Shown in pieces: positions 35,590 to 38,227 of a DNA stretch of 64,000 nt. The position numbers were made by a program, and so were the translations under genes. The notes beneath the pieces are model-generated. The model was not told the origin of the DNA and made no database searches. It saw nothing but the letters and a program-made list of their open reading frames with translations. The stretch is from Escherichia coli. GTDB lineage: Bacteria > Pseudomonadota > Gammaproteobacteria > Enterobacterales > Enterobacteriaceae. Within the stretch, counting starts at the first letter, position 1. Every line of letters starts with the position of its first letter. The stretch is from the NCBI RefSeq assembly GCF_003019035.1, contig NZ_CP027447.1; one strand, 5' to 3'.

Positions 35590-35955
35590 TTATTCATAGC
35601 GTCTGCTACGTGCGGGACGAGGTCGGGTGTACCAGGCAATGCTGCCTAACAATGCCCCGACCAGAGCCATAAATAAAAAGCCGACCAGTGCCCCTAACCA
35701 CTTTCCCGCGGTAGAGCCTAAATCGCTTTCAAATCCCGACACGGGGGCATCGGGGATCCGGCTCATCACCCAGATGTAACGCGCCATTGCCCAGACGAAA
35801 TAGCCACACCATGTATAGAAAGCCCACAAAGCCAGTTTGCCACCAGGACTGCGAGAGAGTCTCTCTTCCATCTTTGTCGAACCGTATTCCATTTTGAGAT
35901 AACCCGGAAAATTCAGACTTAGTACTATTATGTGATAAAAGTCACATTTTTCCAC
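35590..35955 (-). CDS. yedR: inner membrane protein YedR
   Basis: two predicted TM helices; start uncertain (GTG 35955 chosen, TTG 35973 possible). Confidence 0.8.
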   Translation of the reverse strand: MEKCDFYHIIVLSLNFPGYLKMEYGSTKMEERLSRSPGGKLALWAFYTWCGYFVWAMARYIWVMSRIPDAPVSGFESDLGSTAGKWLGALVGFLFMALVGALLGSIAWYTRPRPARSRRYE

Positions 35956-36185
35956 ATTGGATGAGCCAGTCAAGACTCAATCATTTTTTGAACAAATAGA
36001 TAATTTTTGCGCAACGGCAATAATTACCGGAAAAACAGCAATAAAGATTTATTATTATCTATGGTAATGGTTTTATTAATTCACCTAAACAATATATTAG
36101 CACCGAATTCAATTATACCTTTTTTGATTTCTGTGTCATGATAACCCCGTTATTAGCCTTTTATCGTCTTGTTTATATTTTTTGG

Positions 36186-36209
36186 GCCGGCATGATGCCG
36201 GCTTTTTTT
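36186..36209 (+). terminator. orphan intrinsic terminator-like hairpin
   Basis: gccggcatgatgccggc followed by seven T on the plus strand; no annotated plus-strand gene upstream. Confidence 0.4.
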
Positions 36210-36371
36210 ATGTCTTCATTAATGTGCGCGTGATCACATCAGCCGTTTAGCGCAGCAATCATTGATACTTCCTATCTTTCCAATCAACTCATAACATATT
36301 GATATATATTCATAATCTTCATGAATATTTATATCTAGAATTCATAATTTTGAATTATATTAAATAGATTA

Positions 36372-36412
36372 GAAACATTTTGAAATCTTTTAAATACATT
36401 TGTTACATGTAA
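36372..36412 (+). promoter_or_regulatory. OmpR-box-like AT-rich repeats upstream of the porin gene
   Basis: gaaacattttgaaatcttttaaatacatttgttacatgtaat resembles ompC/ompF OmpR sites (TTTACATTTTGAAACATCTA-type); by eye only. Confidence 0.35.
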
Positions 36413-36520
36413 TCCTTAAAATAAAATGAACTTCATAGAATAGTATCCAAATGTGCTTTTTTTTGGATAACGGCACTTATTGATATATTCATGAAGATTA
36501 TAATCACAAGGGAATACATA

Positions 36521-37636
36521 ATGAAAAGAAAAGTTCTGGCAATGCTGGTCCCGGCGTTATTAGTTGCTGGCGCAGCAAATGCGGCTGAAATTTATAATAA
36601 AGATGGCAATAAAGTTGATTTCTACGGCAAGATGGTTGGCGAACGCATCTGGTCAAATACTGATGATAATAACAGCGAAAACGAAGATACATCCTATGCT
36701 CGTTTCGGTGTTAAAGGTGAAACCCAAATCACCAGCGAACTGACTGGTTTCGGTCAGTTTGAATACAACCTCGACGCCAGCAAACCTGAAGGTGAAAACC
36801 AGGAAAAAACCCGTTTAACCTTCGCCGGTTTGAAATATAACGAGTTAGGATCATTTGACTATGGCCGTAACTACGGTGTTGCTTATGATGCCGCAGCTTA
36901 TACCGATATGTTAGTTGAATGGGGTGGCGATTCCTGGGCTTCCGCTGACAACTTCATGAATGGTCGTACCAACGGTGTTGCAACCTACCGTAACTATGAT
37001 TTCTTTGGCCTGGTTGATGGTCTTGATTTTGCGATTCAGTACCAAGGCAAAAACAGCAACCGTAGCACTAAGAAACAAAATGGTGACGGCTATGCGTTGT
37101 CTGTAGACTATAACATCAATGGTTTTGGTATCGTTGGTGCATATAGCAAATCTGATCGCACCAACGATCAAGTTGCCGATGGAAACGGTTCAAATGCTGA
37201 ACTGTGGTCATTGGCTGCAAAGTATGACGCGAACAATGTCTACGCAGCTGTAATGTACGGTGAAACTCGTAATATGACTCCGGGTTCTATTGATACAGGT
37301 GTTGCCGATCGAGAAGGCAATACAATAATGCGTGATCAACTTATCAATGAAACCCAGAACTTTGAAGCGGTTGTTCAGTATCAATTCGACTTTGGTCTGC
37401 GTCCGTCCTTAGGTTATGTGTATTCTAAAGGTAAAGATATCAAAGGTGTACCTGGACATAGATATGTTGACGCTGACCGTGTGAACTACATTGAAGTTGG
37501 TACCTGGTACTACTTCAATAAGAACATGAACGTTTATACTGCATACAAATTCAACATGCTGGATAAAGATGACGCCGCCATTACTGGCGCAGCAGCTGAT
37601 GACCAGTTTGCAGTTGGTATCGTCTACCAGTTCTAA
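36521..37636 (+). CDS. yedS: OmpC/OmpF/PhoE-family general porin (yedS position, intact)
   Basis: signal peptide [22 protein letters not shown]-terminal ...VGIVYQF; 371 aa from ATG 36521 with SD aaggga. Confidence 0.88.
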
Positions 37637-37716: not shown

Positions 37717-38227
37717 TTGGCATTTCATCTCGATCTGCGGCGCACGCAATTGCCAAAGCATATCGATACAGCACCTTACCCCGCCCCCCTGGCTCAATAA
37801 AATCTACCAGCGTCTCTTCCAGCCAACACCCAAATGCATTTCTTTATAAATTTAATCTGTAACAAAACCGCTTCCCATATAGAAATATTTGCAAAAATAG
37901 TGCATGAAAAAAGCTTTTTCTCTGCCAATCCGGGATATAAATATTCATCCGTACCACAATATTCCACAGCACTAAATCTCTCCCCGCCCCCCCGGACTTC
38001 TGATAATGGTCTAAAATCATTGAGGCCACTTGCGACGACGTTGCTCAATAAGGAAAATTTGGCGTGAATAATATTCAACACCAGTGCAGCATCATCATTA
38101 CATACTTACACCCGCCGACTACCGCTTTCGATATATTGACTCAATTTTCCAGCCTGGTTAAAAATAGCGACCAGCTCAGTCGCAAATATAGTGACTACCC
38201 TAACTAAGCAACAATAAGGAATACACT

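Follow-up and report, generated by a model that had tools for sequence, protein, structure and literature searches.

The porin gene yedS of Escherichia coli lies downstream of an AT-rich intergenic region in which two related repeats, R1 (distal) and R2 (proximal to the gene), stand on either side of what looks like a promoter. The locus raises the question of how yedS is controlled and whether the two repeats act as a pair. In a 64,000-nucleotide stretch of E. coli DNA (hereafter, the window), the preferred reading, to which we give a probability of roughly 0.6, is that the region would be the OmpR-activated, H-NS-silenced promoter of a quiescent porin of the ompS1 type, with R1 belonging to the upstream AT-rich control DNA and R2 to the mRNA leader.

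The window has the gene order dcm–yedJ–drpB, rseX, yedS, hchA. A 581-bp stretch around the R1/R2 region was 100% identical to the RefSeq record of E. coli strain CFSAN061771 and, used as a query, was matched in 4,900 of 5,426 complete E. coli genomes. In the annotation of both CFSAN061771 and MG1655, the genes run yedA, vsr, dcm, yedJ, drpB, rseX, the porin gene yedS, hchA, and hprS, with rseX at the same place in MG1655 as ncRNA b4603 and yedS a pseudogene in K-12. The features delimiting the region are as follows.

35590–35871, − strand: drpB, from annotation
36120–36209, + strand: rseX small RNA including its intrinsic terminator (Rfam RF01401, 97.8 bits; gathering score, 50)
36184–36204, + strand: rseX terminator hairpin, a terminator-like site found by scan
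36508–36523, + strand: Shine-Dalgarno sequence AAGGGA (36508–36513) and yedS ATG (36521–36523), the start annotated in the identical RefSeq record

Because 36293–36507 fills the gap between the rseX terminator and the yedS ATG, the yedS promoter and leader must lie here. The yedS control region is bounded upstream by the terminator end at 36209, and AAGG and ATAATG around the yedS start are invariant across genera. Hence, the description of this interval in the first-pass annotation, as the regulatory region of the downstream porin, is borne out by its position between 36209 and 36521; it is the yedS promoter and mRNA 5′ leader, the E. coli counterpart of that of Salmonella ompS1.

The surrounding DNA varies in its own right. 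No match to the 581-bp query was found in 526 of the 5,426 complete E. coli genomes (about 10%), and in E. coli Res13-Lact-PEB21-38-A (L006 3001–3900) an IS1A stands in place of the region from just upstream of rseX through yedS, hchA, and hprSR to hiuH. Within E. coli, the drpB–rseX spacer (35872–36119), with both promoters inside it, shows 58 to 86% identity per 100-nt bin, versus ~99% for drpB. Two CRP-like sites were also recorded: a perfect TGTGA-N6-TCACA at 35931–35946, upstream of drpB, and TGTGC-N6-TCACA at 36223–36238, just past the rseX terminator, the latter with invariant arms and a variable 6-bp spacer among 11 Escherichia sequences.

Orthology with ompS1 was established through the neighboring gene. 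Using drpB/DrpB as the anchor, the locus was fetched from Escherichia, Citrobacter, Klebsiella, Raoultella, and Salmonella; searching proteins with the window porin had yielded relatives resembling OmpF and OmpK35 and nothing named OmpS1. At all fetched loci, the porin gene is divergent to the adjoining drpB and encodes a signal peptide of the form MKRKVLA… or MNRKVLA…. The order in S. enterica is umuC–cspB–porin (403 aa)–drpB–yedJ–dcm. Upstream of that porin gene, the boxes, TAGTAT, the R2 core, and the Shine-Dalgarno sequence each align with yedS nucleotide by nucleotide. ‘yedS (ompS1) b1964’ is listed in PMC2731931. Salmonella ompS1, a quiescent porin gene that is OmpR-dependent and LeuO-induced against H-NS, thus resembles yedS in adjoining drpB and in its aligned GAAAC…TTGAAAT…TTTGTTACATG, TAGTAT, ATTCA…ATTAT leader core, and Shine-Dalgarno sequence. 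Unlike Salmonella ompS1, yedS is a pseudogene in K-12, and the E. coli OmpR sites are putative. In an alignment of 17 sequences from six genera, the conserved blocks were GAAACA…TTGnAAT (36372–36386), TTACAT (36403–36408), TTTAAA…AATGAAC, TAGTAT (36441–36446), ATTCA (36487–36491), ATTAT (36497–36501), AAGG, and ATAATG.

OmpR half-sites of the ompC/ompF kind had been proposed between the repeats. The strings in question lie at 36372–36387 and 36391–36409, in the part of the region that Escherichia, Salmonella, Citrobacter, Klebsiella, and Raoultella conserve best, and the proposal holds up. The block and its upstream flank can be read as three boxes.

36352–36371, + strand: S1, putative distal OmpR box (GAATTATATTAAATAGATTA), a weak match in 10-bp register with S2 and S3 and part of a 30-bp repeat, D1
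36372–36391, + strand: S2, putative OmpR box (GAAACATTTT GAAATCTTTT), top-scoring in the region (8.4 bits) with an OmpR matrix made from six sites
36392–36411, + strand: S3, putative OmpR box (AAATACATTT GTTACATGTA), containing TGTTACAT at 36401–36408

S2 and S3 carry AC cores at the positions expected of tandem 20-bp boxes with 10-bp half-sites; S1 has no AC cores and may be a further, distal box. The S2 score falls within the leave-one-out range of real OmpR sites, and its GAAACA is nearly invariant across the six genera, as is the TTACAT of S3, which carries TGTWACAW on both strands. For comparison, the box sequences of ompF (F1 to F3) and ompC (C1 to C3) were used; both 60-mers were found at 100% identity, the ompF one ending 150 bp before its start codon and the ompC one 120 bp. 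An 11-nt string, ACATTTTGAAA, is common to S2 and ompC box C1, and GTTACAT (7 nt) is common to the yedS block and ompF F1. The six-site matrix discriminates poorly (leave-one-out scores of −11 to +11 bits), gave 18 hits of at least 8 bits in the 64-kb window, and was used in a supporting role only; TGTWACAW occurs across the window at chance level. The region also shows a 9–10/19-bp periodicity (z = 3.3 at lag 19). D1 (36347–36376 versus 36377–36406, 77% identity) came from the repeat search only and without support from Tandem Repeats Finder, which reported no repeat scoring 30 or more in the region.

For the orthologue, published work settles the role of OmpR. The overlapping two-strand TGTWACAW pair stands at −110/−111 from the ATG in S. 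enterica and at −120/−121 (36400–36408) in the window. In S. Typhi, an OmpR ChIP-seq peak lies upstream of ompS1 with two TGTWACAW copies (Perkins et al. 2013, PMC3586657), and the motif that reads TGTTACAT in yedS is under that peak (PMC3586657). Furthermore, ompS1 is down-regulated in ompR mutants of both Typhi and Typhimurium (PMC3586657; PMC2704369). Together, the ChIP-seq peak, the down-regulation seen by RNA-seq and microarray, and the motif at the orthologous position give good support, by orthology, to OmpR control of yedS, and OmpR would be expected to bind the yedS promoter in E. coli. The idea of osmoregulated control thus divides: the OmpR part agrees with TGTWACAW at the orthologous position of OmpR-bound ompS1, whereas osmoregulation itself is unsupported, because Oropeza et al. 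(1999) called the orthologue non-osmoregulated in their title.

Like ompC and ompF, yedS combines tandem 20-bp boxes of 10-bp half-sites with a weak −35 and a box-to-−10 gap of 28 to 29 nt. It differs in having only two convincing boxes and a weak third, in a far lower GC content, and in being silent under laboratory conditions; no counterpart of the distal F4 site of ompF was identified.

Two features place the core promoter and the start of the transcript.

36441–36446, + strand: likeliest −10, TAGTAT, invariant in 17/17 sequences from six genera
36453–36476, + strand: 5′-proximal leader hairpin (GUGCU…GGCAC), from individual folds

TAGTAT is most likely the yedS −10, favored because of its invariance, because the ompC/ompF geometry is reproduced, and because in each genus a hairpin starts within a few bases on its 3′ side. 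S3 and TAGTAT are separated by 29 nt, compared with 28 nt between C3 or F3 and the −10 in ompC and ompF. An alternative −10, TAGAAT at 36436–36441, overlaps TAGTAT and is lost in Klebsiella, and a simple promoter scan preferred another pair, TTGTTA-16-TAAAAT (36400–36427), with 9/12 matches. With TAGTAT as the −10, transcription would start at about 36453.

Do the repeats, then, belong to this promoter as a pair? As sequence, they are real.

36297–36328, no strand assigned: R1, distal repeat, with a direct part TATTGATATAT (36297–36307) and a 17-bp arm ATAATCTTCATGAATAT (36312–36328)
36478–36505, + strand: R2, proximal repeat, with a direct part TATTGATATAT (36478–36488) and an arm ATATTCATGAAGATTAT (36485–36501)
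36338–36357, no strand assigned: second small palindrome, GAATTCA-N6-TGAATTA, which repeats the R1 core in diverged form at a spacing of 32 bp

Both repeat strings reported by the first-pass annotation are present, each one base earlier than it had given: R1 is tattgatatatattcataatcttcatgaat at 36297–36326 and R2 is tattgatatattcatgaagattataatc at 36478–36505, 181 bp apart from start to start and with TTCATGAA in common. The inverted cores are likewise genuine and longer than had been noted, ATAATCTTCATGAATAT being the exact reverse complement of ATATTCATGAAGATTAT at 17/17 positions. In 300 dinucleotide-preserving shuffles of 36210–36520, the longest exact inverted match was 13, versus the 17 observed, and the inverted match is far beyond chance. 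The direct match, TATTGATATAT, is 11 bp exact (13/14 if extended); a direct match of at least 11 bp was reached in 17 of the 300 shuffles, and the significance of the direct repeat alone is borderline. R1 is also palindromic in itself, with ATATTCA (36306–36312) and TGAATAT (36322–36328) separated by 9 bp, and TGAATTATATTAAATA of the 36338–36357 palindrome is invariant in 11 Escherichia sequences. Short motifs recur here, TTCAT and TGAA each having at least five copies in 200 bp. On the inferred start, R1 would span roughly −156 to −125 and R2 roughly +26 to +53, in the mRNA leader and ~16 nt 5′ of the yedS ATG.

Separately, a third copy of the R1 motif, CTTCATAGAATA, was seen at 36431–36443, over the −10 region, and the S. 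enterica counterpart of R1, TCATAGAA, is even closer to this core-promoter copy. R1 may be an old duplicate of the core promoter.

Conservation separates the two repeats. When 11 Escherichia sequences, taken from five E. coli strains, cryptic clades, E. whittamii, and E. albertii, were aligned, a sharp boundary appeared near 36350: upstream of it, 9 to 16 columns in every 20 are variable, versus 0 to 5 from 36360 to the ATG. R1 is among the most variable patches, with only TGATAT, ATAA, and TGAAT fixed, while R2 is invariant in all but one strain and no more conserved than the rest of the leader. The R1 arm of K-12 (ATAATTTTCATGAATAT) matches R2 at 16/17 positions, that of B2 strains (ATAATATTCGTGAATAT) at 15/17, and that of E. 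albertii (ATAATCACGCTGAATAA) at 12/17; over all ten Escherichia alleles compared with that of the window, these included, the range is 11 to 16 of 17, and among the alleles compared a change in R1 was never matched by one in R2. Across genera, only ATTCA (36487–36491) and ATTAT (36497–36501) of R2 are kept, and R1 is barely alignable outside Escherichia, with only CATAAC, ATTGATA, and ATAAT…GAA persisting in Salmonella and one Citrobacter. Salmonella ompS1 lacks the 17-bp R1/R2 complementarity; its arms, ATAAT…GAAYAT, are present and differently spaced.

Complete E. coli genomes gave the same picture. A 65-mer over R1 was at least 99% identical in 22 of 4,859 genomes (0.45%) and 90 to 95% identical in 3,856, a 65-mer over R2 was at least 99% identical in 3,851 of 4,879 (79%), and a 96-mer with the boxes and the −10 was at least 95% identical in 4,851 of 4,879. 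The perfect 17-bp pair is thus a trait of a rare allele and probably not a selected pairing. The R1 zone (85% AT) is polymorphic, and polymorphism of the yedR–yedS spacer is already in empirical use as a host-source marker (PMC11267920); the polymorphisms of that marker cluster in the upstream R1 zone.

Perfect 17-bp inverted repeats flanking 156 bp that hold the boxes and the −10 could suggest an invertible promoter segment (36329–36484) and a phase-variable porin of the fimS type. We regard this as hardly credible: the repeats are imperfect in most alleles, the orientation is the same in all six genera, and no recombinase gene lies within ±4 kb, the neighbors being yedA, vsr, dcm, yedJ, drpB, hchA, and hprS. 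The junction that inversion would create was found in 0 of 4,879 complete E. coli genomes, all of which match its two halves separately, and the switch is ruled out at the assembly level.

Pairing could instead occur in RNA, with R1 and R2 annealing in transcripts that read through from rseX or start upstream, occluding the leader and blocking translation. Several R1 variants are indeed wobble-compatible in + strand RNA (C→U opposite G, A→G opposite U), but about half of the possible transitions in the R1 arm would be so by chance. The predicted fold of 36285–36530 puts R1 in a local hairpin, unpaired with R2, transversions break the pairing in B2-type alleles, E. albertii keeps only 12/17, and the long transcripts are purely hypothetical. 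This alternative is accordingly very improbable.

The leader offers a simpler origin for part of the likeness. At the leader position 36453–36476, each genus folds a hairpin built of its own sequence: Citrobacter, for instance, has AUGUGCUUU/GAGCACAU, and K. indica has CACC.GUCACU-UCGG-AGUGAGGUG. RNAalifold on a MAFFT alignment of the multigenus leaders returned no consensus pairs; MAFFT misaligns the nonhomologous stems. R2 lies between this hairpin and the Shine-Dalgarno sequence. The leader of Escherichia and C. amalonaticus S646 is 9 to 10 nt longer than that of other genera, and the TTATTGATAT half of R2 is inside the insertion; compared with ompS1, these extra bases make the direct-repeat half of R2. 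ATTGATA in R1 also occurs in Salmonella and one Citrobacter, which suggests that the R1 copy is older than that of R2, and in both repeats it directly precedes ATTCAT. Given the greater age of the R1 copy and the shared position right before ATTCAT, the simplest account would be a templated insertion that copied the TATTGATAT preceding ATTCAT in R1.

Looping between the repeats, as the first-pass annotation had envisaged, finds no support, since R1 is polymorphic and unconserved outside Escherichia, R2 is invariant without compensation, and the direct-repeat half of R2 is a lineage-specific 9–10-nt leader insertion. The pattern suggests that R1, in a putative, polymorphic upstream silencer, and R2, in a conserved mRNA leader, are not maintained as a pair.

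Three further observations concern the leader and the start of the gene. Duplex predictions for RseX and MicF against the leader were no better than those for shuffled sRNAs. An in-frame upstream ATG lies within R2 (36491–36520, giving an ORF of 36491–37636); it probably is not used, since no Shine-Dalgarno sequence precedes it and Citrobacter, Klebsiella, and Salmonella lack this ATG. At codons 2 to 4 of yedS, AAAGAAAAG (36525–36533) is conserved in all genera and is complementary to what we take to be the 5′ seed of RybB. Such complementarity would fit the σE-dependent down-regulation of yedS (PMC2731931).

Another view is that the likeness of R1 and R2 has no function, having arisen in low-complexity AT-rich DNA through templated insertion or gene conversion at ATTCAT spots, with drift making it perfect in one allele. 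The perfect allele is confined to about 0.5% of genomes, the others matching at 11 to 16 of 17, compensatory changes are absent, the direct repeat has borderline significance, the leader carries a lineage-specific insertion, and TTCAT/TGAA recur at least five times each in 200 bp, including the third copy, CTTCATAGAATA. However, most E. coli alleles still match at 13/17 or better, and TGAAT and ATAA of R1 are invariant in 11 Escherichia sequences amid variable flanks, suggesting constraint on R1. We rate a wholly functionless origin as distinctly unlikely.

As for silencing, GC content is 15 to 19% at 36300–36449, versus 45 to 58% in the flanking genes, forming an AT-rich island over the promoter. 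Work from the Calva laboratory is said to have shown that ompS1 is derepressed on removal of −310 to −88 and that LeuO binds upstream of ompS1 over an H-NS nucleation site. In window terms, the −310 to −88 interval would contain R1. LeuO induces Salmonella ompS1 against H-NS (review, PMC4264507), and in E. coli, loss of hns derepresses rseX ‘and surrounding areas’, with a greater effect in hns stpA (PMC8313858). H-NS and LeuO may both bind at yedS in E. coli.

The arrangement resembles the H-NS silencer pairs of proU and bgl, with AT-rich elements on both sides of the start and the adjoining rseX silenced by H-NS/StpA, but the downstream element of yedS lies only 26 to 53 nt into the transcript and its H-NS motif match is at chance level. 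If the proU-type high-affinity H-NS 10-mer is taken to be TCGATATATT, TTGATATATT in R2 matches it at 9/10 positions, and the window contains four such matches versus 3.1 expected. The only exact copy of TCGATATATT in the window is at 38128–38137, ~90 bp upstream of hchA.

The LeuO core site has been described as a 19-bp palindrome with 7-bp half-sites and a 5-bp spacer, at cas and leuO (Fragel et al. 2019, PMC6698644). Scanning the LeuO-footprinted cas and leuO regions of MG1655, we found ATATTCA-TACTG-TGAATAT at cas, where the regulatory region holds no other perfect 7-5-7 palindrome, and ATATTGA-TTTGG-TGAATAT at leuO; these probably represent the LeuO core site, of which the text of PMC6698644 prints no sequence. 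The R1 half-sites, ATATTCA and TGAATAT, are identical to those of the cas-region palindrome, yet the R1 spacer is 9 bp, not 5, and the left half-site is unconserved among E. coli alleles (ACATTTA, ACACCCA, ATATCCA). No LeuO 7-5-7 site occurs in the region within 3 mismatches. R2 has one half-site; ATATTCA occurs 32 times in the 64-kb window, and three of these occurrences lie in the 200 bp considered here. R1 as a LeuO site is a lead, not a case of membership.

R1 and R2 could also be paired protein-binding sites that bracket the promoter, bridged by H-NS filaments that nucleate on each of them or occupied together by a LeuO tetramer, a repression loop trapping the promoter or releasing it as at proU and bgl. 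Such bracketing would explain a 17-bp inverted match exceeding all 300 shuffles, ATATTCA in both repeats, R1 half-sites equal to those of the cas palindrome with a near-twin at leuO, the concentration of ATATTCA in 200 bp, and the 9/10 match of TTGATATATT. It would also fit the conserved islands of R1 (ATAA, TGAAT), which mirror the cross-genus islands of R2 (ATTCA, ATTAT), and the control of the orthologue ompS1 by LeuO and H-NS. The mirrored islands and an inverted match far beyond chance could reflect one protein site present in both repeats in opposite orientations. Several points speak against bracketing: the spacer of R1 is wrong for LeuO with no N5 version within 3 mismatches, the left half-site of R1 is unconserved even within E. 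coli, the H-NS motif match is at chance level, R2 is no more conserved than the rest of the leader, and the sequence of the LeuO palindrome was itself deduced. We consider paired bracketing sites unlikely. A more specific version, in which the R1 and R2 half-sites would serve one LeuO-like or H-NS regulator that clamps the promoter, with R1 variation tuning porin shut-off, is a long shot. If it were true, the rare allele in the window, with perfect R1 half-sites and the 17-bp match, would be a naturally ‘rewired’ version, and the host-informative polymorphism (PMC11267920) would be linked to porin expression and possibly to carbapenem susceptibility.

We return to the preferred reading of an ompS1-type promoter, which would operate as follows. 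Phosphorylated OmpR would bind the phased half-sites at 36372–36411, and possibly weaker ones further upstream, recruiting RNA polymerase to a weak promoter with the −10 TAGTAT (36441–36446) in the geometry of ompC/ompF. AT-rich DNA from ~36290 to 36450, R1 included, would be coated by H-NS/StpA, leaving the gene silent until an antagonist such as LeuO relieves the silencing. The transcript would begin near 36453 with a protective 5′ hairpin, and R2 would form a single-stranded AU-rich stretch from the hairpin to the ribosome-binding site. R1 and R2 would then be elements of different kinds with a common short motif (ATATTCA/TGAATAT around TTCATGAA); some of the resemblance probably stems from the 9–10-nt Escherichia leader insertion that copied the TATTGATAT before ATTCAT of R1.

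The coding region downstream (36521–37636) behaves as a hypervariable cassette under a fixed promoter. Compared with the K-12, E69, SCPM, and B2.3 alleles, yedS of the window is mostly 44 to 80% identical per 100-nt bin, with one bin at 35%, and the protein is 52 to 64% identical; in the same comparison, the promoter and leader are 97 to 100% identical, and identity downstream returns to ~95% in K-12 and B2.3. The upstream haplotype is unlinked to the porin class, ST131 and B2.3 having the same upstream type and different porins.

The repeat pair adds little to this picture, being mostly an allele-specific coincidence on a common short motif. On the best reading, the yedS promoter would represent in E. 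coli an already known class, that of OmpR-dependent, H-NS-silenced promoters of the ompS1 type. YedS is an alternative general porin; Warner et al. (2013) reportedly found that it can let carbapenems enter again in cells that have lost OmpC and OmpF, and secondary sources state that yedS is involved in carbapenem resistance, without saying more. The ompS1-type OmpR core, the polymorphism of the R1 zone, and the swappable coding cassette may together serve as a map for when E. coli turns yedS on.
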